Assembly (NCBI GenBank): GCA_021773055.1
Contig: JAJFKV010000044.1
Coordinates: forward strand, 20,151 to 84,150
Direction: 5' to 3'
Length of the DNA stretch: 64,000 nucleotides
Origin: Woeseiaceae bacterium
Lineage (GTDB): Bacteria > Pseudomonadota > Gammaproteobacteria > Steroidobacterales > Woeseiaceae
Shown here: piece by piece, positions 6,476 to 35,988 of the stretch
Layout: each line of letters starts with the position of its first letter
Position numbering within the stretch: the stretch's first letter is position 1
Position numbers and translations under genes: made by a program
The notes under the pieces: model-generated
Seen by the model: the letters and a program-made list of their open reading frames with translations, nothing else
The model's database searches: none
Told to the model about the DNA's origin: nothing

Positions 6476-6513
6476 CCAGACTGATCATAAATCACTCGTC
6501 GATGAATAGTCGA

Positions 6514-7737: not shown

Positions 7738-8750
7738 TCTGTCTCCATTAATCTTTGGATACCTGCTGACATACGTTTCAGTCCGGGGAAATACTGCCAC
7801 TCGAACGCGTGCGGGTAAGGGGTGTCCCAGCCGGCAACACGAGAGATGGGTGCTTCAAGATGGTAAAAACATTCCTTCTGTAGCGTTGCAGCAAGCTCGG
7901 CCCCGTAGCCGCCGAAGCGAGTGGCTTCATGTGCAATCAGACAGCGACCGGTTTTTTTCACCGAATCAGCGAGCGTCGCGACATCCAATGGTGCCAGCGT
8001 ACGAACATCAATGACTTCGCAGTCAACGCCAGTCTCTTTTGCGGCCGCAATCGCCACATGCACGAGTGTGCCATAGGTGACTATGGTCAATTCGTCACCG
8101 CTGCGCGCGATGTCTGCCTGACCAAGCGGTACTGTGTAATAGCCCTCCGGAACCTCACCTTTCGGATGTGAATTCCAGGAGACCGCCGGTTTTTCGGGGT
8201 CGCCGTCAAACGGACCGTTATAAATGCGCTTGGGTTCGAAGAATATTATCGGATCATCAGATTCGATCGCACTGATGAGCAGCCCCTTGGCGTCGTACGG
8301 GTTGGAAGGCATTACAACCTTGATGCCACTGACGTGGGTGAAAATACCTTCTGGCGATTGCGAGTGCGTCTGGCCACCACGAATACCGCCACCGCAAGGC
8401 GTGCGAATCGTAACGGGCGAGAAAAACTCACCGCCGGTTCGATACCGTATTTTCGCGAGTTCGCTGACGATCTGGTCGAATCCCGGGTAAATGTAATCAG
8501 CAAACTGGATCTCGGCAACGGGTCGCAGACCGTTCACGCCCATGCCAATCGCCGTGCCGATAATGCCGCCCTCGGAGATGGGTGCGTCAATAACGCGATG
8601 TTCACCGTACTTGCGCTGCAGTCCATCCGTACAACGGAAAACACCACCGAAGTAGCCAACGTCTTCACCCAGTACAACCACGGTCGGATCTTTGTCCATG
8701 ACAACGTCATGGGCGGAGCGAATCGCCTCGATCATATTCATGCGCGCCAT
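7734..8750 (-). CDS. bkdA2: Branched-chain alpha-keto acid dehydrogenase E1 beta subunit
   Basis: 338 aa with a typical transketolase-like E1-beta sequence (VVLGEDVGYFGGVFRCTDGLQRKYG; IFFEPKRIY). Confidence 0.92.
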   Translation of the reverse strand: MARMNMIEAIRSAHDVVMDKDPTVVVLGEDVGYFGGVFRCTDGLQRKYGEHRVIDAPISEGGIIGTAIGMGVNGLRPVAEIQFADYIYPGFDQIVSELAKIRYRTGGEFFSPVTIRTPCGGGIRGGQTHSQSPEGIFTHVSGIKVVMPSNPYDAKGLLISAIESDDPIIFFEPKRIYNGPFDGDPEKPAVSWNSHPKGEVPEGYYTVPLGQADIARSGDELTIVTYGTLVHVAIAAAKETGVDCEVIDVRTLAPLDVATLADSVKKTGRCLIAHEATRFGGYGAELAATLQKECFYHLEAPISRVAGWDTPYPHAFEWQYFPGLKRMSAGIQRLMETE

Positions 8751-9991
8751 TACTCGCCCGCCTCGACTTCAAGCATGCGGCGGCGTTGCGACACGAGGTT
8801 CCTCGGCATTTCAGCATAGACGTCGTCGAACATTGTTGCCGGATCGAGCCAGGGACCTTCAGTCATCGTGCCGTGTTTCTGCGCTTCCTTCCACGCGGCA
8901 GTCACCTCAGTTCGCAGTTCATCGACGAGGCTCTCATGCTTTGCATCAGACCAATGGCCTTCGGCAATCATGTACTGTTTCAGCCGCTCAACAGGGTCGC
9001 CCAGTGGGAAGGAGTCCCATTCGTCTTTCGGACGGTACTTCGATGGGTCGTCGCTCGTCGAGTGCGCACCGCCGCGATAGGTCACCAGTTCGATGAGCGT
9101 CGGGCCGGCACCACGGCGTGCGCGATCGGCGGCCCAGAGAGTCGCAGAATACACTGCCAGGAAATCATTACCGTCAACGCGCAGACCAGGAATGCCGAGG
9201 CCAAGTCCGCGGGCGGCAAAGGCTCGCCGTTGTCCTGCTGCTGTGCCCTGAAATGTCGAGATAGCCCATTGATTGTTGACGATGTTTAGAATTACGGGCG
9301 CCTGATAAATGGCTGCAAACGTCAGCGCGTGATGGAAGTCTGCCTCAGAGGTTGTGCCGTCACCCACCCAGGACGCCGCAATATGATCTTCGCCTTTGAT
9401 CGCCGATGCCATCGCCCAGCCCACAGCGTGCGGATACTGCGTGCCAAGGTTGCCGGAGATCGAAAACATGTTGCCGCTCTTGCTGTGATACATGATCGGC
9501 AGCTGCCGGCCCTGGCACATATCGCGAGTATTCGACAGGCACTGGCACATCATTTCGACCAGGTTCATGCCGCGATACATATACAGACCCTGATTTCGAT
9601 AAGAGGGGAAACACATGTCGCCCGAACGCAATGCCATGCCTTGTGCGATTGAAATAGCTTCCTCACCCAACGCCTGCATGTAAAATGAGATTCGACCCTG
9701 GCGCTGGATTTGCCACATGCGCTCATCGAAAACGCGGTTCAACAGCATCCAGCGCAAACCAACCTGCAATTGAGCTTTGTCGAACCCCGGGTCCCATGAA
9801 CCCTTAGCCGTGTGGTCGTCATCCAGTACACGAATAAGGCCGCTACTCAGGTGGTGGATATCCCGGTTGCGGGCGTCGAGCGGTGGTTTTTCGACACTAC
9901 CGGCCGGCGAGAGATCGAGGTAACTGAAGTCTGGTTCCTCGCCCGGTCTCGCGGTGGGTCTCGGGATTTGCAGTCGTGATTTAGTAATCAT
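8750..9991 (-). CDS. bkdA1: Branched-chain alpha-keto acid dehydrogenase E1 alpha subunit (TPP-dependent)
   Basis: 413 aa with TPP motif WVGDGTTSEADFHHALTFAAIYQAPVILNIVNNQWAIST. It has a 1-nt overlap with E1 beta. Confidence 0.92.
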   Translation of the reverse strand: MITKSRLQIPRPTARPGEEPDFSYLDLSPAGSVEKPPLDARNRDIHHLSSGLIRVLDDDHTAKGSWDPGFDKAQLQVGLRWMLLNRVFDERMWQIQRQGRISFYMQALGEEAISIAQGMALRSGDMCFPSYRNQGLYMYRGMNLVEMMCQCLSNTRDMCQGRQLPIMYHSKSGNMFSISGNLGTQYPHAVGWAMASAIKGEDHIAASWVGDGTTSEADFHHALTFAAIYQAPVILNIVNNQWAISTFQGTAAGQRRAFAARGLGLGIPGLRVDGNDFLAVYSATLWAADRARRGAGPTLIELVTYRGGAHSTSDDPSKYRPKDEWDSFPLGDPVERLKQYMIAEGHWSDAKHESLVDELRTEVTAAWKEAQKHGTMTEGPWLDPATMFDDVYAEMPRNLVSQRRRMLEVEAGE

Positions 9992-10003
9992 GCGTGCTTC
10001 CTG

Positions 10004-11056
10004 TTATTTCCTGCCGGCGGCAATTAAACGACGCGCGTATTCGTCCGCAAGTTCGTTGGTCGGCCGGCCGGTTTCGATTGCCTCGGCGAATAGCGTCTGT
10101 AGTCGCGCAGGAATTCTCTCTACATCAGCGCGCACCTTGTCTTCCGAGCTACCGCCATAATACTCGTGCGACACGCTGATAATACCGCCAGCGTTGATGA
10201 CATAATCGGGCGCATACAGAATATCGCGTGCCGAAAGCCTTGCGCCATCTTCCAGAGTGGACAGCTGGTTGTTGGCAGCGCCGGCGATGATTTTCGCTTT
10301 GATTTTAGGAATCGTCGCCGAAGTCAGGATGTTGCCGAGTGCGCAAGGCGCAAGTATCTCAGCATTGGCATACAGAATTTCGGCGGGTGCGACGACCTCA
10401 ACCGGAATACTTTCGCCCAATGCCTTTAAGTTGTAGCCATTCACGTCCGCGACAATGAGTTTGGCACCCGCTTCGTGCAGCAACTTGCAAAGGTAAACGC
10501 CGACATGGCCAACTCCCTGAACGGCGACCGTTAATCCGGCCAGCGAGTCCTTATCAAGTCGTGCTTTGACGGCGGCTTCGATTCCCAGGAATACACCAAG
10601 CGCCGTCCATGGCGACGGGTCACCGCCAGCATTTTGTCCGCTTTGCGGCAGACCGGACACATACTCTGTCTGTTGCTGTACGTGTCGCATATCTTCAACT
10701 GACATGCCCACATCTTCGGCTGTTATGTAACGGCCACTCAAAGAATTAACGGCGCGCCCGAACGCTGCCAGCAACTCCGGGGTTTTCGGCACAGCGTCAT
10801 CACCAATAATGACAGCCTTGCCACCGCCGAATGGAAGTTCCGCCACGGCATTCTTGTAGGTCATGCCGCGGGATAAGCGCAGTGCATCGGTTAACGCGTC
10901 TGCGTCGCTCACGTAGGACCAGCGTCGACAACCGCCGGCTGCCGGACCAAGAGCCGTTGAATGCACTGCAACGATGGTGCGTAGCCCGGTTGGCTCATCG
11001 TTTATGAAGTGCAGCGATTCATGGTTGTCGAATTCGGTGTGATCAAAGACGGCCAT
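10004..11056 (-). CDS. ldh: Leucine (Leu/Val/Phe-type) dehydrogenase
   Basis: Glu/Leu/Phe/Val dehydrogenase motifs ELPFGGGKAVII and VAVQGVGHVGVYL. The start MAVFDHTEF at 11056 is preferred over the ORF-track start at 11149. Confidence 0.88.
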   Translation of the reverse strand: MAVFDHTEFDNHESLHFINDEPTGLRTIVAVHSTALGPAAGGCRRWSYVSDADALTDALRLSRGMTYKNAVAELPFGGGKAVIIGDDAVPKTPELLAAFGRAVNSLSGRYITAEDVGMSVEDMRHVQQQTEYVSGLPQSGQNAGGDPSPWTALGVFLGIEAAVKARLDKDSLAGLTVAVQGVGHVGVYLCKLLHEAGAKLIVADVNGYNLKALGESIPVEVVAPAEILYANAEILAPCALGNILTSATIPKIKAKIIAGAANNQLSTLEDGARLSARDILYAPDYVINAGGIISVSHEYYGGSSEDKVRADVERIPARLQTLFAEAIETGRPTNELADEYARRLIAAGRK

Positions 11057-11194
11057 GCGTCTCCCCTGTGAGTGTGAGCTAGGCATAGATTGACTAATAT
11101 ATCGCGGAATAAGGCTATAAAGCTTGCAAAACCTTTTACGTAAGTTCAAAACAGCGCATAATCAATGTGATTATCTATTACTGGCGACTAAATC

Positions 11195-11662
11195 ATGCAA
11201 AACGTTTCGCTCGACCATACCGACCGCAAGATTCTTGATTTGCTGCAGACCAATCCCGGCATCAATGCGACCGCGATTGGTGAGCGGATCGGGCTGTCGC
11301 AGTCTGCATGCTGGCGCCGCATTCAGCGTATGCGAGAGGAAGGCGTAATTCGCGATCAAGCCGTCATCCTGGATCGTGAGAAGGTCGGGTTGACGACGAT
11401 GGTATTTGCACACGTCAAGCTGACGTCACACGGCCGCAGTAATTTGTCTACATTTGCCGAAGACGTGAAACGCTATCCGGAAGTGATGGATTGCTACGTT
11501 GTGCTCGGCAATGTTGACTTCTTGCTGCGCATCGTCACTGAGGACATCAAGGCCTACGAACAGTTTTTCTTCGAAAAACTATCGCAGCTGCCGGGTATTC
11601 AAGAGGTTAATTCGAGCATTGTGCTTTCTGATATCAAGCACACAACGGCGCTCCCAATCTAG
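11195..11662 (+). CDS. bkdR: Lrp/AsnC-family transcriptional regulator, divergent from the ldh-bkd operon (BkdR-like)
   Basis: 155 aa with an N-terminal HTH (LDHTDRKILDLLQTNPGINATAIGERIGLSQSACWRRIQRMREEGVI) and a C-terminal AsnC/RAM domain. The divergent arrangement matches the Pseudomonas bkdR-bkd layout. Confidence 0.85.
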   Translation: MQNVSLDHTDRKILDLLQTNPGINATAIGERIGLSQSACWRRIQRMREEGVIRDQAVILDREKVGLTTMVFAHVKLTSHGRSNLSTFAEDVKRYPEVMDCYVVLGNVDFLLRIVTEDIKAYEQFFFEKLSQLPGIQEVNSSIVLSDIKHTTALPI

Positions 11663-11712: not shown

Positions 11713-13062
11713 TTACTCGATTGGCTCATCTTCAATTTCCAGCTCCGTATCAGGCTCGGGCTCAGGCTCCGAGAGGGTTGCGAGCATTGCGGCAAACTGG
11801 GCGGGGCGATAGCGCTCATCGTTATTTAGTGTGTCCGCAATCCGGTCCAGCTGATCTTCGAGCCGGGGGTCATCAATTTCGATAACCAGCATTTGCACCG
11901 CCATGAATGCCTGCTCGGCGCTGATGTAATCAATGTAGTTACCTTCCGCTCCGGTGCCGAGAATTTCGCGCAACAACCGCATTTCATGACCGCTTGGATT
12001 TCGAGGAGACAGCTGACCTTGCAAGCGGGCCAGGACGACGTCGAGTATTGCTGCGGCCTCCCGGATGGCGTCGATATTGTCGCTGCCTGCACGATGCAAC
12101 GCGACGAGGCCGGACTCCATCGCCTCCCCATCGGACGGGGACAGGGCGCGCGCCAATGCCATCGACATTACGAGCGTACCGTCGTGTACAAACGGCACAC
12201 CGGGTCCGGCACCGCCGTGCCGCGGTAGTGGTCGCCACTGCACAGTCTTCATTGAGCGGTGACAAGCGTGGCAGTCATAAAGCCCGAGCTCCGGAAACAT
12301 TCCTTCGCCGTCGAAAAGTGGTCCATCAATCAAGCTCAGGCGATGCCGGCTTTCGGCGAGTAGTCCGGCAGCCCAGCTGTAGCTGTGGCTTACCGAGCCT
12401 TTGCGCTCGCGATAATCTGCATCGATCCGATAGTGAGGTTGGCGACCAAAAGTACGCCATAACTCCGTAAATGTATCGAGTTCAAACGCGAGGCGGGGGT
12501 GTCCTGCCGCCATGATGCGATGCGTTGCAAACTTGTCCTTTGTACCGAGATGACAAGAGAGACAAAGGTCGCCACGCTTCGATACGGATTCGGTTGGATA
12601 CAGGCCGGCCTCGAGATTCGCCGCATGCGTGACGGTCGGTTGGTTGTAATGTGTCGCCAACCAGTTTTCCGCACCACCGTGGCAGGATTCGCAGCCAACA
12701 CCATCGGAAAGGTGAAATCGCTCACCGCGCTGCTGGAGCGGGACATTATCCGCGTGGCAGTCTAGGCATATTTTCGCCGTAATTGCCGATCCCAACCCGA
12801 GTCGTGCGGCGATACCCTTCGATCGGCTATTGCTGAGAACTTCGTAGGCCAGAGAGTGTGGGTCGTCCTGCGTCCAAGTGACGTACTCATTCTGCAAGAC
12901 GTTGGAACCCTCGCGCGGTACCGCTGAGCCATGGCATTGAGAAGCAGCGCAAGTAGCAACGCCCATGTGAACATAGCCATCGTTCTCGGGTAACTCGGCA
13001 GAGGTCACGCCAGCCAGCAAGATGCCAAGCGCAGCAAGCGACGTTCTATTCATCTTCGACAT
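11713..13062 (-). CDS. Secreted multihaem c-type cytochrome (4 CXXCH + 1 CX4CH) with an acidic C-terminal tail
   Basis: Signal peptide MSKMNRTSLAALGILLAGVTSA. Haem motifs are CAASQCH, CLDCH, CESCH, CLSCH and CHACH. The tail is EPEPEPDTELEIEDEPIE. The start is 13062 or 13053, overlapping the upstream stop by 17 or 8 nt. Confidence 0.85.
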   Translation of the reverse strand: MSKMNRTSLAALGILLAGVTSAELPENDGYVHMGVATCAASQCHGSAVPREGSNVLQNEYVTWTQDDPHSLAYEVLSNSRSKGIAARLGLGSAITAKICLDCHADNVPLQQRGERFHLSDGVGCESCHGGAENWLATHYNQPTVTHAANLEAGLYPTESVSKRGDLCLSCHLGTKDKFATHRIMAAGHPRLAFELDTFTELWRTFGRQPHYRIDADYRERKGSVSHSYSWAAGLLAESRHRLSLIDGPLFDGEGMFPELGLYDCHACHRSMKTVQWRPLPRHGGAGPGVPFVHDGTLVMSMALARALSPSDGEAMESGLVALHRAGSDNIDAIREAAAILDVVLARLQGQLSPRNPSGHEMRLLREILGTGAEGNYIDYISAEQAFMAVQMLVIEIDDPRLEDQLDRIADTLNNDERYRPAQFAAMLATLSEPEPEPDTELEIEDEPIE

Positions 13063-16000
13063 ACCAGGGATTCCCCTCTGCATCGAGATACAGTTTCTGC
13101 ATCTCTTCATGAGTAAGTGGACGCGAGCCCTTGCGGCCGAATACCGCGATCTGACCGCCTGTTTCGTCGACACCGCGATCGCGATCAAGCCCTTTCGAAA
13201 GCGACAACACCGGACTTTGCGTTGGATAACTTGCGATCAGTTCGGGTTTCGGCAACGGGCTGAAGCCGTAAAAGTTTGGTTGTGAGCTCGGCGACGTCAG
13301 TTGCACAATCTTCAGGCCGTCGAAGCCATCAGCGACATAGGCGTAAAGAGATGCGTTGGTTGAGCCAACAACGACATCCCGCGAATCGCGGATCCGCCCG
13401 TTCGCATTGAAAAACTCAATGAGCTTCGGTTCTTCAGGGTTCCAGACATCGATGACAGCCAGCCCTTGTGAGCGTGCAGCTACGTAGGCATAGGTTCGAG
13501 CAACATATATGCGTTCGGCATCGTCAATCGGAACATGTGCGCCACTCATCCGTGGAGCGTCCGGGTTCGTTACATCAACAACGCGCAGCCCCGAATCGTC
13601 TGTGACAAACAGATAGCGAAATTGCAGCGCTGACGCACGACCGTTATCGAGCGGTACAATGGCCGTGATATACGGAATCATCGGCCGGTTCACATTGACG
13701 ATGATGAGTCCCCGATCCGCGACGATGTACAAATAGTGGCCGCCGATCGTGATGTGACGCGCACCGGCCAGTACGCCACCGGGGTTCCACGTCAAAGCTC
13801 GCTCGATGAAATTGTTATTCAGATCACCGTCAGAGAAGGTCGTTACATCAACCAGGATCAGCCCTTCCGTGCTGTCGGTTACAAATGCGTAGTCATAGAT
13901 CGGATGAAACGCCTGTTCCTGATTATCGATCCGCATCAGATCACCAGTATTTCGTGGCGGATGAATAGGTTGATTGGTGGGCAGTGCTACGCAGGTGGCG
14001 TACTTTGAGTTAACGTCTGAGTCGTGCCCCATTTTGCTAAAGGGCAACTCGACGATGCGCTGACTGAAGCCCTTGTTCGCAATGTTCGCAATGTCATAGA
14101 CCTGCAAACCCTTTTCGCCTTCCGCCGAATACAGATACTCTCCGCGCACTTGCACGCAACGTGCCGGTCCACCGCTATGTGTTGCGGCGGTCTGCAGAAC
14201 GCTGCCATCGTCCAGATGCTGCTGGAAATTATCCGGGTAGGCGTAACGGTGCAAATAGCTGCCGATTACCGCTTGTGGTTCGTCCCATTCGGTAACTTGC
14301 GTGCCGAGAATGCCGTCTTCCAGACCGGCCCAGGCATTGAAGCCGACAAAATTGACGAAGTTGGTACCGAACAGCAACAGTTGAGCCATCCACGCATTGT
14401 TATCACCCGCGGCGCTCAGGTGGCAATTGCTGCAGGTCTTGGTTTCAGTTTTTCGCGTCGTGTGCGGAAAGTGCGGATTCATTGCCTGTGAGCTGAAGCC
14501 ACTGGCCGCAACCGGTGCCTGTTGAACGTAGATGTGTTCGCGGTTCGCATTGGTCGACGACAAGACCAGAGCTGAAGAAGAACGTACTGGTGCAATCTTG
14601 CTATCGTTCAGTGGTCCGCGCCGACCGAGCATGAACATTTGATCGCGTGCTACCTGCGGGTTGTAGGTGGCGAAGTTACGAGATTCACCGCCGTCATAAT
14701 GATGACTCTCGGTTTTCCAGTTAGCCTCGATAGGCAAATGGCAGCCGGCACAACTTGTTATCCACGATGTGTGGCAGGTGTAGCACTCAATCTCTTCGTT
14801 TTGATGAGCGAGGTCTTCCGTCGCTACGCCCAATCCCCAGTCCTGGCTTTGTACGTCATCGCTCATCAACTTGGCGCGTGCTGCTTTTTCGTTGTACTCG
14901 GCGTGCTCGGGATTGACGCTGTCCTTGACCAGGCTCAACGCCCACTCGACGTCGGGGTCCAGTATTGATCGCTGGATGAGTTTGTCGCCTTGCCACTCGA
15001 AGCGGCGCTTGCCATTCTCATTGCGATACAGACGCATGTCTGTGCCACCCGGTGGTGCAGCGGGGCCTGATGTTCTCAAGTCCGGATACGACTGCGCTGT
15101 ACCGTGGCAATCCTTGCATTCGACTTCGACAGCACTCGCCACTTCGCCGTAAATATGCCCGTTGCCGTGATTGTCTTGCGTGAAGTGACAATCCACGCAG
15201 TGCATGCCTTTATCAACATGGATAGATGACATGTGTACAGCTTTGTCAAACTTGTCCGGATCATCGTTGGCGACGATGTTGCCATCGGCATCCAGAAGGT
15301 TGCCTCGCAAGTCGCGTTTTTGAATGGCGCGAAAATTCCAGCCGTGGCCGTGGTAATCCGCGAACTGCGTATCGTTTAGTTCGGGATTGAGATCGGTCAC
15401 GTTGCGCAGGAAATCGATGTCCGCCCACTTGCCACGAATGACCGCTCCTTCAGGGTTTCGGTCCTGGACCTCTCGCTGCTCGGCAATGCTCAGATTTTGT
15501 TGTTCCTCTGGCCACATGAAGGGCGCGTCGGACTCGTAATCCCACATCGTGTAGCCAAGATAGGAATTCATAAACATGTTGGGCTGGTGCATGTGACAAA
15601 CCATGCACTGGCTCGTCGGTATGGCGCGCGAAAACTCGTGTCGCAATGGGTGGCCTGATTCGCCTTTGGGAATAGTTGGATCAAGTGATGTTGATTCACC
15701 GTCACGGCCGAACGCAGCATAAGGGCCCGAGTGCCTCTCGTCACGGTCATTCGCGTAGACGACGTGGCAACTCGCACAGCCCGAAGATCGATAGTCGCCC
15801 GGCTGATCATTGGTGCCCATGAACCAGGTGAACGGATCGTTCAGACGAGTCTTGTGAATATTGATCAATGGCACGGCTATACGGCCGCCGGTACCAGGAC
15901 CACGATTGGACTGTCGCGTATCGGGCTTGCCCGGCTCTTCGAGTCGCTGTATTTGCCCCAGCGTATTCGGCAAACCGGTTTCCGGAAACAGGTTGGTCAG

Positions 16001-16711
16001 GTTTCTGCCGCCGTCCTCAAACACACGGAACACATCGGCTGGCTTGACACTTTCCCAGGTAGGCAATGGAAACAAGCCGGCGATGACGCCGTGTTGTTTC
16101 GCCACTTCGGGGTCGAGGTCGGACCCCGTAATTTTGGCGGGTTCGCCGTCTGCCGTATAGCCTTCACCGAGTATGTAGTTCTTGAACGGCAGTATGCCGT
16201 TATTGTATGCGGCACCACCCCAGAGCATGACGCCAGTTGCCATCATGCTGCGAATATTCGCATCGATAATTTTCTGATGGCATGCGCCGCAGGCCGTTTC
16301 AGCCACCCGATAGTCGGATGGATTGACGAAGCGGATGAACTCGGAGCTTTCGTGGTTGAGGAGCGTGTACGAGCGTTCCGGGTTGGCGCTTGACGGGAAA
16401 TGCCAGGTCTCCGGATAAAGCGGACTAACGTGCGCGCGATCAAGCGCAGATTCGTCATCCTTCTCGATCGTCGAGTCGCCGCCGTGACAATCGGTGCAAC
16501 CGAGCACCACAGACGGACTGTCATGCATGCTGCTGGCGTCGGTGGACGTGTGACAGCTTACGCAGCCGAAGCTTTTGAGCGCGGCCATTTGCTGTGACTG
16601 TCCTTCAGGCGCGGGCGGGTAGACAGGATATTCAACGTGCTGCGGTGCCTCGCCCTCCGAGGCCATCAGCATGAGCGGCAGTAGCAACAATAACGATGTC
16701 AGTTTCTTCAT
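13046..16711 (-). CDS. 1221-aa secreted decahaem c-type cytochrome fused to a C-terminal LVIVD-repeat beta-propeller
   Basis: Signal peptide MKKLTSLLLLLPLMLMASEG. There are ten CXXCH motifs in the first ~770 aa (CVSCH, CTDCH, CGACH, CASCH, CMVCH, CVDCH, CKDCH, CYTCH, CAGCH, CSNCH). The C-terminal ~400 aa carries six LVIVD-like repeats (GLQVYDIAN, GLILVDVTT, GLIIVNVNR, GLRVVDVTN, GLAVIDVWN, GLKIVQLTS). Confidence 0.85.
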   Translation of the reverse strand: MKKLTSLLLLLPLMLMASEGEAPQHVEYPVYPPAPEGQSQQMAALKSFGCVSCHTSTDASSMHDSPSVVLGCTDCHGGDSTIEKDDESALDRAHVSPLYPETWHFPSSANPERSYTLLNHESSEFIRFVNPSDYRVAETACGACHQKIIDANIRSMMATGVMLWGGAAYNNGILPFKNYILGEGYTADGEPAKITGSDLDPEVAKQHGVIAGLFPLPTWESVKPADVFRVFEDGGRNLTNLFPETGLPNTLGQIQRLEEPGKPDTRQSNRGPGTGGRIAVPLINIHKTRLNDPFTWFMGTNDQPGDYRSSGCASCHVVYANDRDERHSGPYAAFGRDGESTSLDPTIPKGESGHPLRHEFSRAIPTSQCMVCHMHQPNMFMNSYLGYTMWDYESDAPFMWPEEQQNLSIAEQREVQDRNPEGAVIRGKWADIDFLRNVTDLNPELNDTQFADYHGHGWNFRAIQKRDLRGNLLDADGNIVANDDPDKFDKAVHMSSIHVDKGMHCVDCHFTQDNHGNGHIYGEVASAVEVECKDCHGTAQSYPDLRTSGPAAPPGGTDMRLYRNENGKRRFEWQGDKLIQRSILDPDVEWALSLVKDSVNPEHAEYNEKAARAKLMSDDVQSQDWGLGVATEDLAHQNEEIECYTCHTSWITSCAGCHLPIEANWKTESHHYDGGESRNFATYNPQVARDQMFMLGRRGPLNDSKIAPVRSSSALVLSSTNANREHIYVQQAPVAASGFSSQAMNPHFPHTTRKTETKTCSNCHLSAAGDNNAWMAQLLLFGTNFVNFVGFNAWAGLEDGILGTQVTEWDEPQAVIGSYLHRYAYPDNFQQHLDDGSVLQTAATHSGGPARCVQVRGEYLYSAEGEKGLQVYDIANIANKGFSQRIVELPFSKMGHDSDVNSKYATCVALPTNQPIHPPRNTGDLMRIDNQEQAFHPIYDYAFVTDSTEGLILVDVTTFSDGDLNNNFIERALTWNPGGVLAGARHITIGGHYLYIVADRGLIIVNVNRPMIPYITAIVPLDNGRASALQFRYLFVTDDSGLRVVDVTNPDAPRMSGAHVPIDDAERIYVARTYAYVAARSQGLAVIDVWNPEEPKLIEFFNANGRIRDSRDVVVGSTNASLYAYVADGFDGLKIVQLTSPSSQPNFYGFSPLPKPELIASYPTQSPVLSLSKGLDRDRGVDETGGQIAVFGRKGSRPLTHEEMQKLYLDAEGNPWYVEDE

Positions 16712-18501
16712 CAGTACGCCAGAATCAGGTTTGCGAGTACGGAGTAGGCCGTGTCCGAGCCGAAAAGTTGTTTATAGCCATCGGCCGGGACGAGCGCGGA
16801 ACCCGCTACACGCAGAATAACGTTCTGCGATATCAGCGGCCGATAGGTAATCGCGAGCGACAGGTCCTGACCAATACTCTTGTCAATGTTGCCCTGATTG
16901 CGGGCGACTTCGAGTACTGCCGTATCGTCGAACCACAGCTGGTTTGCATTTATGGACGCGCGAATCTTCGGTGTGATTTCCATATCGACACCCACACCCG
17001 CCAGCAACAGCCCCGGGTTTGTGAAATTCGATTGCCCGTGCGCCTTGCTTGAACGCAACGAATTGAGCAGGCCGTTCTGTGACGAGAGCGTGACCCGGCC
17101 GCCACCGAGCAACGGCACCGCCTGACGAATCCAGAAACTAGTGTCGGCACCGGCGATCAGCGGATTCTCAAAAATCGCGTCGAAGCCCGTGGACTTGTCA
17201 TCATAGGGATCGTCATCTCCACTGCCATAGATGAGCGTTGCCCGGAGACGTAACCAGTCGAAATCTCGCGAGACCTCGACGGCTGCAAATGCGGCGCTGA
17301 TATCGCTCTCAAGGCCGGTAAATGTTGCGGGCTTTTCTGTGCCAAACGCGTAGTAAGCCGAAGCTGTCAGGTTCCAGCGACCGATGTGACCGTCGCCGTT
17401 ATAACCGACATATGTGACCTCATACTCGCGATTTCTCTGCACGCCGATAGCGGCAGGTCGAGCGAGAAATCCATTTGCGTCTACGAAAGGATCATCAATT
17501 TCGGAATTACGGTTGTGAACCAGCGCGATCTGTGAGGTGAAACCCAGTATCGGAAAGTCCTGTCGATAGAGATTAAAAAGTAATACGTCGTCCTCACGGA
17601 GGTCGGCGGAAATGTCGTTCAGTCCGCTGTTCGAGTCTTTCTCAAGACGGCGGAATACACCGATGTTGTATTGCCAGCGATTGTTGTTCCGCGTGCCGAA
17701 CAAGCGGATGCCCACCGGGCTGTCTTGAAACAGGAAACCCCGAAAGTCGGCCGTTATCGGCTGTATTCCGATCCTCAGACTATCGAAGTCAAAGCGATCG
17801 GAGACGTTGCGCAAATGCTTGTCGAGAAACAAGCCCTGGATGCCGACAAAGTTGTCACTTCGAGTTGTGCCCGCGGTTGGGTCGGCTCGCAAGATACCGG
17901 CTTCGCCGACTTCGACGCGTGTGAAATTAAGAACTGGCAGAATACGCAGCTCATAGTCAGGCGGCCTGAATATGGTCTCGCCTTTATAGAGCACCGCCTC
18001 AAGGAGGACGTTTTGAGTAAATGCTGTCTGATCGACGTCGCCAGGAACGTCGAGCTCACCCGGATCGGGTGATGTTGCGATCCCGACGGGTGTCGGCAGA
18101 CGGCGACCCTCAAAAGTCGAGTCCGAAATCAGATTGAAGGCGACAAACCAGTCGTTACCGAATGCGGGGCGATCACCTTTTAGAACGTTGTTGCCATGAT
18201 ACGGATCCCAAAGGCGCTCGGGATAACCGACAGCATTAACGATGCGCCAGCGATCCGGTATGGCTGCGAAATAGGGCAGGTCGCCCCAAACAGCTGGTGA
18301 AAGTCCGGGCTCATCACAGCGATGTGCTTCACGTGGCGGGTCACCAGGCCGGCGACGTAAGCGATCGAAATACTCGACGCAATCAGCACGTATGCCGGGA
18401 GCCTCCGCTTGCACAGCGTTTGACACGGACATCGCATAACACGCGACCAGTGTGGCAAGGCAAAGATGTCTATTTATTTTCACAGACATTCTGCTCGTCA
18501 C
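16711..18501 (-). CDS. Putative outer-membrane beta-barrel protein (family not recognised)
   Basis: About 590 aa with signal peptide (MSVKINRHLCLATLVACYAMSVSNAVQA-EAP). The sequence has alternating amphipathic, Gly/aromatic-rich segments throughout and a C-terminal ...SVLANLILAY ending in an aromatic residue. Its stop overlaps the next gene's ATG by 1 nt (TGATG). The start is 18501 or 18489. Confidence 0.6.
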   Translation of the reverse strand: MTSRMSVKINRHLCLATLVACYAMSVSNAVQAEAPGIRADCVEYFDRLRRRPGDPPREAHRCDEPGLSPAVWGDLPYFAAIPDRWRIVNAVGYPERLWDPYHGNNVLKGDRPAFGNDWFVAFNLISDSTFEGRRLPTPVGIATSPDPGELDVPGDVDQTAFTQNVLLEAVLYKGETIFRPPDYELRILPVLNFTRVEVGEAGILRADPTAGTTRSDNFVGIQGLFLDKHLRNVSDRFDFDSLRIGIQPITADFRGFLFQDSPVGIRLFGTRNNNRWQYNIGVFRRLEKDSNSGLNDISADLREDDVLLFNLYRQDFPILGFTSQIALVHNRNSEIDDPFVDANGFLARPAAIGVQRNREYEVTYVGYNGDGHIGRWNLTASAYYAFGTEKPATFTGLESDISAAFAAVEVSRDFDWLRLRATLIYGSGDDDPYDDKSTGFDAIFENPLIAGADTSFWIRQAVPLLGGGRVTLSSQNGLLNSLRSSKAHGQSNFTNPGLLLAGVGVDMEITPKIRASINANQLWFDDTAVLEVARNQGNIDKSIGQDLSLAITYRPLISQNVILRVAGSALVPADGYKQLFGSDTAYSVLANLILAY

Positions 18502-20443
18502 TGTTGATATAGGGAGTGGCAGGGCAATTCACATAGCGCAGGCGTGTTCCTTGCGGTACCAGCGTGTCCGCTCGCACTGCTGTCGCCGCATTGCTGAAAG
18601 TGCCGCCTTGTGCAGACTCATGTACGCCAAGGAACGCAATCATGTCGTCCTGATCGACGCCATCTCCGGAAACTCCGATGCCGCCAATGAGTTGTGAGCC
18701 ACGGTAGATCGGTACGCTGCCCGGAAAAATCTGGGTGCCGTTGGCAAGCGCCGGAATGACGCCTGCGGATACAAAGTTGTTGTCGAAGCCATCCACACCC
18801 GTGCAATTTGCAGGCACATCGGGGACCAGGCCCGCGACGAAGCCGACGTGTTGCACCAGCGCGTTATAAACGAGGTCCAGCTGCAGGCCGGTTGAAAAAG
18901 GACTCCATTGTCCGGCGGGTTTACTGAATGGACCCGGTGGATTGCCCGTCACGCCATCCGGGAAAAAAGGACGAGAGAGATTGCCACCCGCGCGGTCAGA
19001 AAACGCGATTGCGCCGTCGGTCAGTGCGTTGGGCAAGCCAAGGAAAGATTGTGCTGCGATGACGTACTGTGACAGTGGCTCTTTGCGTAGAAGAACAAGA
19101 CCGCCGTTTAAATAGGTCGCCGCCGGAACGCCATTTAGCGAGGCGGCCGCCGCGGCAGAAGAAAAGAAAGCCGCTGTTCGTGCTTTCTGCAGCGATACAT
19201 CCGTACCAAAAACCGGTGCATCTCGTGTTCTTACTATGCCGAGAATTACTCCGTTGGAGTCAACAACGGAAATCGTTACTCGGGCCTGGGTGCCACCGGG
19301 CTGGCGAATTTGTGCGCGTGAACGATTGGCCACCACCAAAGCCTGACTGAGGATGGCCTGAACTTCCGCTGCCGTTAAGGCCGAAGCGCCATCGGTGCCG
19401 GCGATCGGGCGATAGCGTTCAAGGTTGGCATTGTCGACAAGGACGAATGCGTCGAGACCGGCGTAATCGAGGGTGTCGGGACGAATGCCCGATGCGGGTT
19501 GTCCGAACGCTACGCCAGCGTTGGTTGTCGCCGCGACGTACCCGGGTACAGCGAGCAGCATTCCAGCGACGTTGTTGATGCTGGCAAATGTCGCTGCGCT
19601 GTTGGGGTCGGTAAGTAGCCCCGCTTGTGTTGCGTCTGAGAAGCGCAGGCTGCGACCGTCTACGGCGATGCGGTGAGCGCGTCGGTCATCAGGAGCCGCG
19701 AACCCGGATGCGGCAGCCAGTGCGATGAATTCATCGTTATCCTGGTCGAGGTCGGAAATATCGGGATCAAAGGAGTACAGCGCATCACTGATGACGCCAA
19801 CACCGCCGACGGGAGTGCCACCTTTATATAAAGGAAAGCCGCCAGAATCTGCGGCCAGGCCCAGTGGTGACCGGTGCGGGCCGGCGTCCGGCACGCCGCC
19901 CGCGTAGCGAGTTATGAGGTCGGAGCAGGCCAGCTGACTGAATTGCACACCGAATAACGGGCCAGCCGGCTGCAAATTATCTTGCGGATTGAAATGGTCC
20001 TGCACGATCTGGCTGGCAGTTCGTGTGCTGAACGCATTGCCTTCGGTCGAGAGGTAGGCCGCGGTTACGGCTTTGGAAATAGCGGCCATGCTGCCGGGAA
20101 TTATATTCACGCCTTCGAGGCCACCGTCTATGTTTCCGCCCGGTGATGTGATCGTTATGGCCACCGCAGCTGCGTTCATCTGAAAAACGGCGAGCACATT
20201 ACCCACACGATCAACAACAGCAATGGTACCGTCGACGTTGCGCGCTTGCGCTTCGCTGACCGCACGAGCTATGACGCTTTCGACATCTACAACACTCAGT
20301 TGCGTCGGTGTGTTCGCACAGAATCCATCGCAGCCGACTGCCGGCGTACTAACGTCAACATCTGTAGATTGCGGCCGGGAGCCACCACCGCATGCAGTGA
20401 TGAGCAGCAGAGCTGCGATCAAAAGTGGTGTGCGATGAATCAC
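18470..20443 (-). CDS. Lipoprotein with two GlcG/HbpS-like (DUF336, haem-binding/degrading fold) regions
   Basis: Lipobox LLITAC-GGG. GlcG-like segments are VESVIARAVSEAQARNVDGTIAVVDRVGNVLAVFQM, VTISVVDSNGVILGIVRTRDAPVFGTDVSLQKARTAAFF and PIYRGSQLIGGIGVSGDGVDQDDMIA. The GTG start forms a 4-nt overlap with the upstream stop. Confidence 0.65.
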   Translation of the reverse strand: MIHRTPLLIAALLLITACGGGSRPQSTDVDVSTPAVGCDGFCANTPTQLSVVDVESVIARAVSEAQARNVDGTIAVVDRVGNVLAVFQMNAAAVAITITSPGGNIDGGLEGVNIIPGSMAAISKAVTAAYLSTEGNAFSTRTASQIVQDHFNPQDNLQPAGPLFGVQFSQLACSDLITRYAGGVPDAGPHRSPLGLAADSGGFPLYKGGTPVGGVGVISDALYSFDPDISDLDQDNDEFIALAAASGFAAPDDRRAHRIAVDGRSLRFSDATQAGLLTDPNSAATFASINNVAGMLLAVPGYVAATTNAGVAFGQPASGIRPDTLDYAGLDAFVLVDNANLERYRPIAGTDGASALTAAEVQAILSQALVVANRSRAQIRQPGGTQARVTISVVDSNGVILGIVRTRDAPVFGTDVSLQKARTAAFFSSAAAAASLNGVPAATYLNGGLVLLRKEPLSQYVIAAQSFLGLPNALTDGAIAFSDRAGGNLSRPFFPDGVTGNPPGPFSKPAGQWSPFSTGLQLDLVYNALVQHVGFVAGLVPDVPANCTGVDGFDNNFVSAGVIPALANGTQIFPGSVPIYRGSQLIGGIGVSGDGVDQDDMIAFLGVHESAQGGTFSNAATAVRADTLVPQGTRLRYVNCPATPYINSDEQNVCENK

Positions 20444-22044
20444 GGATATGAGTCCTTCGCCTCAAAGTGGAAACCGTGGCACATGACGCAAGTGCTCGAA
20501 ATTTGAGTTGCTGAATTACGTCCGGACTCACCGCTGCCATGGCAATCACGACACACGCTGATGCCCGGTATCAATAGATCAGTGGCAACTTCCGACTGCG
20601 TCGCAAAGTGGCAGCTATCGCAGCCGCTCACATCAGTATCGTGGGAGGCGTGCGAGAAAACCGCGTGCGGGAAAAATATTTCCGTCAGTTGTACCGGATC
20701 AATGTGCCAGGGAACGTCACCCTCGGTGTTCGTCACCGTGTGGCAATTGATACAAGCTCGCCTCTCAAACAGGTCCTCTGCGACATTTAAAGCTTCGGTG
20801 CGTGCCTCTGCCGCCACGCGGTCCCGGTCCGCCCGCGAGAGCCTTCTTCCCGGCCGTCGTACGCGTTGATCGACTACATCGGGATCTGCGCCTAACAGGC
20901 GTGCGCTGTAATACTCGATCAATGCCTGCACGACGGCATCAGCATCACCGTGTGGGACTGTGCGTGTCGGTTCATCCGGGTCAAATGCCAGGGTATGGCA
21001 GTCGCTGCAGTGTTTATCCATCGAGATCGCCTGCATGCGCGCGCCGCCGGGATCCGGCGTATGACATTCAGCGCACTCAATGACGCGCATGCCGTCGGGC
21101 GTGATGATGCCATTTGGGTCCAGGTGAATCAGGTGATTGAAATTTAGGTTCGATACATCGGCATGTGTGGCTGATGTCAGTTCAAGCTGATCGATCAACC
21201 ATTCCGTTTCGCCGTCAGGAGACTCTGTCGGTCGCTTGAGACTGACTTCGAAATTCGGATGGTCATCGAGAAAATCTGCCGCGTTTTGCAGTTCCACACC
21301 GCTTGGCAGGTTTGCGTGACAATCAGCACACAGATCCTGATGCTGGTTAACCAGTTGCGGTGGTTCGTTGTGCTCGAGGTGGCACAACGCGCAGCGCGTC
21401 TCCCCAAGTACTGCATGTTGACGTTCCGTTGCGTGGCGTTGCACGGCGTGGCATTCGACACAGGCATCATCCGGCACGCGCTTGAACAATGTGGTGTGGC
21501 AGCTGCCGCAGTCGCTTGCGATCGACGCATGCGCGCTATTCACCGGCCCGGCCAGTAAGAAATCGTGCATGACTAATGCTGGCATGGCGAAGCCGAGAAG
21601 CAGCACGACCGCGACGAGTGTCCATGCAATCTTGCGTTTGCTCCAGCCACCAATTCCGCTTGTTGGTGTACTCCACCGGGATATCAGGTGCTCGTCGTCG
21701 GCGTCTTCGCGGAGCTCAAAGCTAATTGCGAAGTTGAAGCCGTCGGGAGGGTCGATGACGCGAATGACGTTCGCACCAACCTCAATTACATCACCTGCAC
21801 TTAGCCTGGTGCTACGTTGTGATTTTCCGTTGACAGTAACGCCTGCCATCGCGTTCGTAGTGATGTGGATCGCCCCGTCTTTCGGTTCAATCACGGCGTG
21901 TTGTAATCGCGCCCGGCGATCTTTCAGGTGCAATACCTGGTCTGTGGAGCGGCCAATCGTGATCGCCGGTGCATCGACGGGGTGGTCATGCTGTTCAACG
22001 CCACCGGCTGCATTTCTTGTGATGAATCGAATCAGATAGGCCAT
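20440..22044 (-). CDS. FHA domain - single TM - periplasmic decahaem c-type cytochrome
   Basis: N-terminal FHA-like region (ITIGRSTDQVLHLKDRRARLQHAVIEPKDGAIHITTNAMAGVTVNGKS...GDVIEVGANVIRV) followed by the TM helix WTLVAVVLLLGFAMPALV. Ten CXXCH motifs follow (CGSCH, CVECH, CALCH, CADCH, CAECH, CSDCH, CINCH, CDSCH, CRDCH, CVMCH). Confidence 0.85.
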   Translation of the reverse strand: MAYLIRFITRNAAGGVEQHDHPVDAPAITIGRSTDQVLHLKDRRARLQHAVIEPKDGAIHITTNAMAGVTVNGKSQRSTRLSAGDVIEVGANVIRVIDPPDGFNFAISFELREDADDEHLISRWSTPTSGIGGWSKRKIAWTLVAVVLLLGFAMPALVMHDFLLAGPVNSAHASIASDCGSCHTTLFKRVPDDACVECHAVQRHATERQHAVLGETRCALCHLEHNEPPQLVNQHQDLCADCHANLPSGVELQNAADFLDDHPNFEVSLKRPTESPDGETEWLIDQLELTSATHADVSNLNFNHLIHLDPNGIITPDGMRVIECAECHTPDPGGARMQAISMDKHCSDCHTLAFDPDEPTRTVPHGDADAVVQALIEYYSARLLGADPDVVDQRVRRPGRRLSRADRDRVAAEARTEALNVAEDLFERRACINCHTVTNTEGDVPWHIDPVQLTEIFFPHAVFSHASHDTDVSGCDSCHFATQSEVATDLLIPGISVCRDCHGSGESGRNSATQISSTCVMCHGFHFEAKDSYP

Positions 22045-22048
22045 ATCG

Positions 22049-22918
22049 TCACCAGTACAGGAACACGGTTAGGATATGCGCAATCAGGGCCATAAGCAGA
22101 GCGGCCGTCAACGGGACATGGGCATAAAGCCAGATCTCAATGCCAGCCTGTAATTTCAGGTCTGCGCCGACCTGTCGCAAGAGTTTGCGCTTGTTGCGAA
22201 GCAGGGCGGACAACTCCGCGATCGTCGCGGCAGAATTCGCATCAGCACGCGATTGTTGCTCGGCGAGCCAGTCCATCGCAGCTTCCTGACCCGGGTTTAG
22301 AATGGTTTCCGCCTGATTCGGTATCTGAATACGGGACCGGTCTTCGTTACGCAATCGCTGCCACAAGGTACTGCCCAGCTCAGTACGCTGAATGCCACTG
22401 GTAACGAAGTCCTGATACTCATTTGGCAGATTTTCAGCAACCCGGCGGCTGCGCCGGTCAATGTCATCCAGCTGGTCGAGCAGCTCTGAACGACTCGAGC
22501 CATCACGATTTTCACTAAGCCGTTCCGGATACTTCAAATAGATGAAAACACCGTACATGCCGCTGACGATGACCAGTGTCATGAGCGCGAAAGCCAGCGT
22601 GTGAATATTCCATCCGACCTGGAACCCGGCATGCAGAAGAACGATGACAAACAACGCGATGCCGAAATAGACGTGCGCCGACAGCCAGCCCTGCAAGGTT
22701 CCCGCGGTCGAGCTGTAGCGTCGCTTTCGCACGCCAAACCACGTTAACCAGACAATCATTAACGCTCCGAATGTTCCCAGCGTGTAGCCAAGTACTGTGC
22801 CACCGTTGGGAGGCTCCTGTGGGTCATGAATCCAGTAGGCAAGCAGACAAACAATAGTCAGTGCCGTCGCCGCCCAAAGATAGCGGTACCTCCTGAAGAC
22901 GAGTATCGATTCGTGCAT
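22049..22918 (-). CDS. Integral membrane protein (4 TM + ~130-aa soluble insert + 1 TM) with two H-x13-H helices; putative di-haem b-type electron carrier
   Basis: TM3 is SAHVYFGIALFVIVLLHAGF and TM5 is YAHVPLTAALLMALIAHILTV, each with two His separated by exactly 13 residues. No other family motif was recognised. Confidence 0.55.
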   Translation of the reverse strand: MHESILVFRRYRYLWAATALTIVCLLAYWIHDPQEPPNGGTVLGYTLGTFGALMIVWLTWFGVRKRRYSSTAGTLQGWLSAHVYFGIALFVIVLLHAGFQVGWNIHTLAFALMTLVIVSGMYGVFIYLKYPERLSENRDGSSRSELLDQLDDIDRRSRRVAENLPNEYQDFVTSGIQRTELGSTLWQRLRNEDRSRIQIPNQAETILNPGQEAAMDWLAEQQSRADANSAATIAELSALLRNKRKLLRQVGADLKLQAGIEIWLYAHVPLTAALLMALIAHILTVFLYW

Positions 22919-28278: not shown

Positions 28279-28325
28279 TTTTTTTATTTTCCCGCGATCC
28301 AAATCTTGAGCAGTGCTGTGCGGTA

Positions 28326-31374: not shown

Positions 31375-31398
31375 GCGTTGTGAGAAAAATACAACGTG
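31375..31398 (+). promoter_or_regulatory. Conserved inverted-repeat leader/operator motif upstream of TonB-dependent receptor 1
   Basis: gcgttgtgagaaaaatacaacgtg has arms CGTTGT-N9-ACAACG and ends 27 nt before the ATG. A 20/24-identical copy sits at the same relative position upstream of the second receptor. Confidence 0.5.
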
Positions 31399-31425
31399 TC
31401 ATTTTTCAATCAAGGGGATATTGCC

Positions 31426-35935: not shown

Positions 35936-35959
35936 GCGTTGTGCGATAAATGCAACGTT
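35936..35959 (+). promoter_or_regulatory. Second copy of the conserved inverted-repeat motif, upstream of TonB-dependent receptor 2
   Basis: gcgttgtgcgataaatgcaacgtt has arms CGTTGT-N9-GCAACG (one G-T/U wobble) and ends 29 nt before the ATG at 35989. Confidence 0.5.
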
Positions 35960-35988
35960 TCTTTAAAAACAGCATAAGGGGAACATCA

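Follow-up and report, generated by a model that had tools for sequence, protein, structure and literature searches.

The window considered here is a 64,000-nucleotide stretch of a Woeseiaceae genome (assembly GCA_021773055.1, contig JAJFKV010000044.1, positions 20,151 to 84,150), and within it ten genes run head to tail on the minus strand from position 30467 to 11713, overlapping or separated by a few bases only. Two of these genes are the subject of this analysis: one encodes a protein that models as an outer-membrane beta-barrel, and the other a large decahaem cytochrome whose C-terminal third is a beta-propeller. In window coordinates the pair is laid out as follows:

16711-18501, minus strand: barrel gene, 596 amino acids (aa) from a GTG start or 592 aa from an ATG four codons further in
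13046-16711, minus strand: cytochrome gene, 1221 aa, a 130-kDa product with a type I signal peptide
14342-16711, minus strand: part of the cytochrome gene for the signal peptide (aa 1 to about 21) and the decahaem region (aa 22 to about 790), recognised by its CXXCH motifs
13046-14341, minus strand: part of the cytochrome gene for the LVIVD beta-propeller (aa about 791 to 1175; PF08309), a conserved C-terminal tail (aa 1176-1221) and the stop codon

An initial annotation, made from the sequence alone, had described the two genes as coupled stop to start, and at the junction (...CTGATGAAG...) the TGA of the barrel gene and the ATG of the cytochrome gene do have the A at 16711 in common. The overlap itself is not conserved, being replaced by a 6-nt spacer in a related Woeseiaceae genome, but the adjacency is. 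The length of 590 aa given to the upstream protein was close, and the signal peptide ascribed to it is present; identical database entries start four residues later, at 592 aa.

The barrel gene lies directly upstream of the cytochrome gene in about 77 of 82 genome loci and in every one of the 77 distant metagenome loci (out of 80) that retain an upstream flank, and this arrangement spans Alpha-, Beta- and Gammaproteobacteria, Acidobacteriota and soil metagenomes. In the metagenome loci the other genes of the neighbourhood are found within 8 kb less often than the barrel, so that barrel and cytochrome make up the invariant core, and gene order supports the view that they are a true functional pair. 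The porin-cytochrome-like pair proposed initially thus holds as a unit, adjacent in essentially every locus with a flank; what had been left out is that this unit is the end of a conserved six- or seven-gene set that begins with an NAD(P)H flavoprotein. One apparent fusion of barrel and cytochrome (P0331) was rejected as an assembly artefact with frameshift-like, low-complexity sequence.

The cytochrome family is widespread. A protein search returned more than 7800 clusters, of which the top 120 were all full length and those with names were Woeseiaceae, and an all-against-all library contained 1851 representatives below E 1e-30. Full-length relatives extend down to about 40% identity, most with 8-10 haems and one with 28; the latter (P0252) is a 1648-aa variant in which about 19 extra N-terminal haems precede the conserved core and the propeller. 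When one genome per species was scanned, the family turned up in at least 597 species, distributed over Woeseiaceae, Halieaceae, Methylococcales, Steroidobacteraceae, Burkholderiales, Sphingomonadales, Caulobacterales, Rhodospirillales, Acidobacteriota and Myxococcales. The module is also present in several cultured isolates, Stagnimonas aquatica THS-13, Tsuneonella rigui KCTC 42620 and Zavarzinia sp. CC-PAN008 among them, and its hosts are mostly aerobic Proteobacteria, many of them aerobic heterotrophs.

As had been reported from the sequence, the 1221-aa protein contains ten CXXCH motifs in about 770 aa. They begin at residues 50, 72, 141, 312, 369, 505, 532, 643, 654 and 760, the last of them ending at 764, and the protein has no CXXCK or long-spacer haem motif. 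Across 83 orthologues all ten motifs are at least 95% conserved, as are 14 further histidines (63, 94, 354, 358, 375, 454, 456, 493, 498, 515, 636, 747, 750 and 832). Judged by these numbers, conserved histidines suffice for bis-His ligation of every haem, and the haems appear to be bis-His; 14 conserved histidines outside the motifs for ten haems point to electron transfer rather than to catalysis at a haem. In more distant relatives the third motif is often lost, leaving nine haems. Conservation at the same threshold extends to 410 of the 1221 positions across bacterial classes, and the conserved motifs include YHGHGWNFR and CMVCHMHQPN together with polar clusters in the propeller. The AlphaFold2 model of the haem region has a pLDDT below 50, a level that yields neither a resolved fold nor an assignment of ligands. 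Inspection of 160 loci showed a plain type I signal peptide at the N terminus in almost all orthologues, and anchoring as a lipoprotein was therefore rejected, a few distant representatives with lipobox-like N termini notwithstanding.

Where this cytochrome belongs is answered mostly by what it fails to match. The single sequence hit no PDB chain at E below 0.01 among all chains, and a profile search of the same set reached at best a local dihaem motif around haems 4-5 of NrfA (E 0.011). The best curated family was ExtM (NF040943), at 73.8 bits against a cut-off of 800 (E 9e-21), through two local stretches around haems 6-7. By sequence, then, the cytochrome is without homology to the known sulfite, nitrite or tetrathionate reductases and to MtrC/OmcA, which bears out the initial supposition that it is no close homologue of a characterised reductase. 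Relatives of the haem domain had also been envisaged among HAO, MccA and octahaem cytochromes, and the searches found no such homology beyond the local NrfA-like motif. In the source annotations the protein appears as a ‘hypothetical protein’ or a ‘multiheme c-type cytochrome’.

The propeller is more readily classified. The C-terminal third of the protein matches the LVIVD family PF08309 with 83.2 bits against a cut-off of 20.2 (E 7.8e-24). Of the six LVIVD-like repeats noted initially, five follow the strict pattern GL-x-[IV]-[IVY]-[DNQ]-x (at 868, 1001, 1041, 1083 and 1132), and the sixth is a relaxed GLILVDV at 950 in which G950, L951 and I952 are conserved; the spacing of 45-60 aa stated for them needs correction, since successive repeats are 82, 51, 40, 42 and 49 aa apart. 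AlphaFold models about seven blades over mature residues from about 770 to 1155 at a pLDDT of 85-93, and Foldseek returns only generic beta-propellers for this domain. Within the set of 83 close orthologues, C852 and C907 reach a conservation of at least 95%. In a 15-sequence alignment of the wider family no histidine or cysteine of the propeller is invariant, and a metal centre of the NosZ or TcDH kind was rejected on these grounds.

The product of the upstream gene models as a beta-barrel in the outer membrane with about 18 strands. The protein begins with a signal peptide and a periplasmic N-terminal extension of about 85 aa, continues with 18 predicted strands, and has the C terminus ...LILAY. 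The AlphaFold2 model, built with 31 homologues, is of low confidence (mean pLDDT 52); its secondary structure consists of 18 long antiparallel strands, joined alternately by short turns (2-9 aa) and long loops (4-69 aa). The top Foldseek matches are all outer-membrane barrels, AlgE first (E 6e-13, with a TM score of 0.34-0.47) and OprD/Occ channels next, and by sequence the protein has no match in Pfam, NCBIfam or PDB, even as a profile. Strands, fold matches and the alternation of turns and loops all agree with the barrel that had been suspected initially, and not with a soluble periplasmic protein.

The pattern of conservation in the barrel suggests what sort of channel it may be. Strand positions that face the lumen are better conserved than those that face lipid (0.62 versus 0.43), conservation across 75 orthologues reaches 93% or more at 139 residues, and counting the strands identifies the conserved loops as L3, L4 and L7, the last being 69 aa long (residues 429-497) and the most conserved stretch of the whole protein. 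Occ channels, which are monomeric 18-strand barrels, have an L3 and an L7 that fold inward and form the constriction (PMC3260308). Eighteen strands together with conservation of L3 and L7, as in the Occ channels, speak for a substrate channel rather than an MtrB-like sheath, and on the model the barrel looks like a substrate-specific one. There is no CXXCH motif, no conserved cysteine and a single conserved histidine in the barrel, which hence carries no haem of its own. A barrel of this kind would be too narrow to enclose a multihaem wire in the way of the 26-strand MtrB, and a sheath of that sort gains no support from the strand number or from the Occ-like loops.

The remaining eight genes of the operon are these:

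11713-13062, minus strand: c554-like pentahaem cytochrome with a signal peptide (Pfam Cytochrome_C554, E 1e-8)
18470-20443, minus strand: lipoprotein of 657 aa with two HbpS/GlcG-like domains (lipobox LITA-C; PF03928, E 8e-20)
20440-22044, minus strand: inner-membrane FHA-decahaem protein of 534 aa (Pfam FHA, c3 and c7 matches)
22049-22918, minus strand: five-helix membrane protein of 289 aa, a predicted dihaem cytochrome b (conserved histidines; weak PF01292 match)
22920-25301, minus strand: cytoplasmic flavoprotein of 793 aa (Pfam and NCBIfam matches)
25298-26944, minus strand: FecR-domain protein in the upstream part of the operon (Pfam match)
26929-28359, minus strand: tetratricopeptide-repeat (TPR) protein of 476 aa with a weak Slam-like barrel match (PF04575, E about 1e-3, sub-threshold)
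28326-30467, minus strand: CHASE2 adenylate/guanylate cyclase, heading the operon (Pfam match)

Across classes the conserved order is flavoprotein, b-type protein, FHA-decahaem, lipoprotein, barrel, cytochrome and pentahaem, with rearrangements in Sphingomonadales and Caulobacterales. The flavoprotein combines a TrxR/FNR-like FAD and NAD(P)H domain, which has two GxGxxG motifs, with two cyclic-nucleotide (cNMP)-binding domains; its 16 conserved cysteines are sufficient for four [4Fe-4S] clusters, and its sequence holds neither a redox-active CxxC disulfide nor a signal peptide or transmembrane helix. In the 289-aa protein, His82 and His96 as well as His267 and His281 lie 14 residues apart on two helices (56 orthologues), and judged by hydropathy and charge, each pair has a histidine close to either face of the membrane, and a large charged loop is in the cytoplasm. 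This is the classic four-His, two-helix motif by which a dihaem transmembrane cytochrome b is predicted. The next protein has its N terminus, with an FHA domain, in the cytoplasm and its haems outside, with a single transmembrane helix (aa 139-157) between them; the periplasmic part, of about 360 aa, carries ten CXXCH motifs, every one of which is conserved in 58 orthologues, and the MtrA/DmsE family TIGR03508 gives 22 bits against a cut-off of 192.

The HbpS-like lipoprotein, whose gene immediately precedes that of the barrel in most genome loci, has 132 residues that are at least 93% conserved in 61 orthologues and shows weak matches to EfgA/GlcG-type chains in PDB. On the other side of the pair, which it adjoins in most loci, the pentahaem cytochrome has one CX4CH and four CXXCH motifs, all conserved in 58 orthologues. 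Its most likely start is an ATG (MSKMNR...) that falls within the final codons of the decahaem gene (13046-13062), and the TTG that gives a 491-aa reading frame is probably wrong; a related genome has the orthologue annotated at 442 aa. The module as a whole would hold two b and 25 c haems. Scans with Pfam and NCBIfam found no quinol dehydrogenase of the NapC, CymA or NrfD type in it, and the NCBIfam scan gave weak, sub-threshold matches to TmcA, HmcA and HmcB.

The genes from 25298 to 30467 belong to the same tightly packed operon, in which reading frames overlap or abut, and stand outside the conserved core; the FecR, TPR and CHASE2 cyclase genes probably have a regulatory role. At least 11 of 80 genome loci and 5 of 80 metagenome loci have a CHASE2 cyclase close to the module, which matches the two cNMP-binding domains of the flavoprotein. 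Genes for PP2C-type phosphatases and stand-alone FHA proteins recur beside the module in 13-14 loci (e.g., L005:9054-11000), a recurrence which suggests that the inner-membrane decahaem protein is controlled by phosphothreonine via its FHA domain. Secretion genes are absent from the recurrent neighbours. A scan of the operon for promoters and terminators found sites no more numerous than in shuffled sequence. The TPR gene, if it encodes a real Slam, could have the HbpS-like lipoprotein flipped to the cell surface; a Slam-like TPR gene stands beside the module in just one other locus (L112).

Outer-membrane electron transfer is known mainly from the Mtr and Pcc complexes and from Cyc2, of specialist metal respirers and iron oxidisers, and it is against these that the pair has to be measured. 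As in MtrCAB, MtoAB and PioAB, a barrel gene adjoins a decahaem gene and further multihaem proteins reach the inner membrane. The components, however, differ: MtrB has 26 strands, whereas the barrel here has about 18 and no MtrB/PioB Pfam match; MtrA is compact (about 330 aa), whereas the partner here is a 130-kDa cytochrome-propeller fusion without a match to TIGR03508, a family of about 300-350 aa; and in place of a CymA-type quinol dehydrogenase an NAD(P)H flavoprotein and a dihaem b protein appear to feed the electrons. Of the features of MtrC and OmcA, the 1221-aa protein has no lipoprotein signal, no PF22113 domain and no PDB match to MtrC, OmcA or UndA. Cyc2 offers a different parallel in that a small barrel of 16-18 strands is coupled to a c-type cytochrome and the substrate arrives via the pore and not over a haem wire. 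Yet Cyc2 is a single polypeptide with an N-terminal monohaem domain and serves as an inward-feeding oxidase, whereas here there are two proteins, ten haems and a propeller, and flow is probably outward.

Among barrels, the nearest folds are the monomeric 18-strand channels of the OprD/Occ and AlgE families, and the loops that constrict Occ channels are among those conserved here. There are differences as well: sequence similarity to OprD/Occ and AlgE is lacking (Pfam Alginate_exp included), L7 is much longer at 69 aa, the N-terminal extension of about 85 aa is additional, the cytochrome is an obligate partner, and the neighbours are redox proteins. The Geobacter cluster extHIJKLMNOPQS, implicated in selenite and tellurite chemistry, likewise combines a porin-like protein (ExtI), a cytochrome b and an iron-sulfur protein with ExtM, which is 68.3 kDa (PMC5877670). 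ExtM nevertheless packs 12 haems into 599 aa (the profile length), resembles the cytochrome here locally, around haems 6-7, and is accompanied by other partners, namely a Rieske protein, a rhodanese-like protein and the ExtI porin.

The inner-membrane half of the module is reminiscent of the Tmc and Hmc complexes and of exporters of the NOX/MsrQ type, which also link a cytoplasmic iron-sulfur or flavin protein to a dihaem b protein and a periplasmic acceptor without quinones, but it has no homology to them above family thresholds, it carries cNMP domains on the flavoprotein, and its acceptor is an FHA-anchored decahaem protein. Tmc and Hmc are thought to carry electrons inward.

Propellers have been placed near multihaem cytochromes before: NHL-repeat propeller proteins are reported to be associated with outer-membrane multihaem cytochromes in Desulfovibrio ferrophilus and Geobacter (cited in bioRxiv 10.1101/2022.05.06.490989), where the propeller is a separate protein, whereas here an LVIVD propeller is fused to the cytochrome and a real barrel is present. 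Three further candidates were set aside. The Uet cluster of Tenderiales, the sole case in the literature searched of LVIVD with multihaem proteins, has an LVIVD protein that is separate and without a cytochrome, together with a 28-strand barrel; the electrode-associated cluster of Methylobacter is a classical MtrA/MtrB-like set; and the surface cytochromes of Methylococcus (MCA0338 and relatives) form an unrelated c553O family with PKD domains. Overall, the module works like a porin-cytochrome system but is neither MtrAB/MtrC, nor Cyc2, nor ExtM, and it shares no sequence homology with the octahaem enzymes (NrfA/HAO/Otr/MccA/ONR).

Several ways in which such a module might operate can be envisioned. 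The one that we favour, if with somewhat less than even confidence, builds on what was observed of the anatomy of the genes, their cofactor motifs, the membrane topology, the fold class of the barrel, synteny and conservation. It holds that a regulated chain exports electrons without passing through the quinone pool and that the pair is its invariant terminus at the outer membrane, with a periplasmic, propeller-docked cytochrome reducing a substrate that passes through the barrel. Cytoplasmic NAD(P)H would reduce the FAD of the 793-aa flavoprotein, electrons would pass through its four putative [4Fe-4S] clusters, be carried across the inner membrane by the two b haems of the 289-aa protein, traverse the periplasm along the FHA-anchored decahaem protein and probably the pentahaem, and arrive at the ten haems of the 1221-aa cytochrome. 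The latter would sit on the periplasmic side of the outer membrane, its propeller contacting the barrel, the HbpS-like lipoprotein or both, and would there reduce an oxidant that enters through the barrel, an 18-stranded and presumably substrate-specific channel constricted by L3 and L7. The pair would in this respect be closer to Cyc2, in which substrate reaches haem via a pore, than to MtrAB, in which a haem wire fills a wide pore.

The direction of flow, the docking, the periplasmic location and the existence of a diffusible substrate are what we infer beyond these observations. Outward flow is favoured because inward flow to NAD(P)+ would be uphill and against the membrane potential. Since outward flow from NAD(P)H dissipates the membrane potential, a regulated service reductase is more likely than a respiratory pathway, and possible roles include metal mobilisation, detoxification and production of reactive oxygen species; the presence of cNMP and FHA domains suggests that it is regulated through second messengers and phosphothreonine. 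The cytochrome is placed in the periplasm on the strength of a narrow, loop-constricted barrel, the lack of a lipid anchor and a very high degree of conservation, 410 of 1221 positions being unlike what is seen in surface cytochromes.

A number of observations do not sit easily with such a scheme. The barrel model has a mean pLDDT of only 52, so the numbering of strands and loops, and with it the L3/L7 parallel, could be off, and an outer cap might just as well dock on the conserved ‘extracellular’ loops. The 289-aa protein weakly resembles quinone-reactive cytochromes b (PF01292, E 0.004), which leaves room for quinol input. Only about 25 of 80 distant loci have the trio of flavoprotein, b-type and FHA proteins within 8 kb, and the pair may also work with other electron inputs. 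Finally, 25 c haems exceed the usual need of a periplasmic reductase, LVIVD repeats are typical of surface proteins, and the cytochrome has a weak choice-of-anchor B match in NCBIfam.

The last three of these points feed directly into a surface-exposed alternative, which we consider possible though less probable. Here the cytochrome would be exported (e.g., by type II secretion), its propeller would sit on the outer loops of the barrel or bind a mineral or a partner, and a haem-bearing segment or the pentahaem would lie in the barrel as a trans-outer-membrane conduit for extracellular electron transfer. Besides the LVIVD repeats, the anchor match and the length of the chain of two b and 25 c haems, such an arrangement could draw on the outer-membrane lipoprotein of the module, on L3, L4 and L7 as a possible docking site, on the barrel-capping propeller lipoproteins (BtuG on BtuB) among the Foldseek matches, on the few distant homologues with lipobox-like N termini and on the weak Slam-like gene in this operon. 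It is difficult to reconcile, though, with an 18-strand barrel that is much narrower than the 26-strand MtrB and without conserved haem ligands, with the missing lipid anchor in nearly all orthologues, with conservation far above what is usual for surface-exposed proteins, with the absence of linked secretion-system genes and with the many hosts that are aerobic heterotrophs. The initial suggestion that the propeller is a mineral- or partner-binding head at the surface is affected in the same way: a propeller about 60% conserved across bacterial classes fits a partner or ligand that is itself conserved better than mineral surfaces that vary, and the surface is, in our judgement, a slightly less likely position than the periplasm.

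Reversal of the whole chain, in which the pair would take electrons from a donor outside the cell or in the periplasm (for instance Fe(II), reduced sulfur or a cathode) and pass them inward as in Cyc2, MtoAB or Tmc/Hmc, is unlikely. A periplasmic multihaem c protein, a membrane cytochrome b and a cytoplasmic iron-sulfur protein do reproduce the Tmc/Hmc layout, the sub-threshold TmcA, HmcA and HmcB matches point the same way, and the Woeseiaceae include chemolithoautotrophs (PMC6850669). But the cytoplasmic end is an NAD(P)H-type flavoprotein, and reduction of NAD(P)+ from bis-His c haems would, we reason, be uphill and against the membrane potential; most hosts, moreover, are aerobic heterotrophs.

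Also rather improbable is a catalytic role, in which the cytochrome would be a novel enzyme whose active site lies in the propeller or at some unusual haem; the remaining module would do no more than supply electrons, with the barrel as a mere substrate porin. Haem-propeller fusions are typically found in periplasmic enzymes, cd1 nitrite reductase and quinohaemoprotein dehydrogenases among them, and the enzyme-level conservation, including YHGHGWNFR, CMVCHMHQPN and the polar clusters of the propeller, and the local NrfA-like dihaem motif are in keeping with catalysis. On the other hand, conserved histidines are enough to ligate every haem twice, the propeller has no histidine or cysteine invariant across the wider family, and no known enzyme family matches; this alternative overlaps the periplasmic export scheme, from which it differs solely in the site of the chemistry. 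The notion that the barrel is not a substrate channel and instead a dedicated device for exporting or anchoring the cytochrome, in the manner of two-partner secretion, has in its favour an invariant pairing in which the barrel gene comes first and a large signal-peptide protein follows, but is the least credible of all, as the barrel has no POTRA domain, Omp85 feature or secretion-family match and a folded 130-kDa haem protein should be unable to traverse 18 strands.

If the periplasmic export scheme is carried a step further, we arrive at a proposal that we regard as speculative and not very likely: a widespread machine that delivers cytoplasmic NAD(P)H electrons to the outer membrane, gated by cyclic nucleotides and phosphothreonine, for on-demand reduction at the envelope or outside it, and not for respiration, in ordinary aerobic Alpha-, Beta- and Gammaproteobacteria. 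Candidate roles would be the generation of extracellular superoxide and the mobilisation, by reduction, of Fe(III)/Mn(IV) or organic oxidants; to our knowledge, the bacterial enzymatic source of extracellular superoxide has still not been identified.

The searchable literature yielded no description of the pair or of the module, and on multihaem cytochromes of Woeseiaceae we found only generic mentions of MtrCAB-like or Tenderia-like genes. The three surveys consulted, which relied on known markers (FeGenie with BLASTp to an MtrAB-like cluster in one, Pfam PF09699 in another, mtrCAB reported in the third), do not describe this family. What goes undescribed is thus a pair without a characterised homologue that recurs in at least as many species representatives as were counted above and in thousands of metagenomic protein clusters, at enzyme-level conservation, and whose hosts include the Woeseiaceae that are abundant in marine sediment, Halieaceae, methanotrophs, Sphingomonadales and Caulobacterales. 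Should export of NAD(P)H electrons under second-messenger control prove true, envelope redox chemistry in aerobic heterotrophs would be far commoner than gene screens report and could cover metal reduction, production of reactive oxygen species and detoxification, and the barrel-cytochrome pair would represent a new, non-Mtr solution to electron delivery at the outer membrane.

The surroundings of the operon add a few minor observations. Downstream, window positions 4464-11662 hold an AsnC-type regulator, a Leu/Glu-type dehydrogenase, DUF1611 and enolase-superfamily genes and a branched-chain 2-oxoacid dehydrogenase operon (E1 alpha, E1 beta and E2); the order of these genes is kept in related Woeseiaceae genomes, and they are unrelated to the module. 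Two large TonB-dependent receptors are encoded divergently from the operon, at 31396-34545 and 35950-39000 on the plus strand, and a reading frame for a small dihaem c-type cytochrome lies elsewhere in the window, at 52137-52766 on the minus strand.

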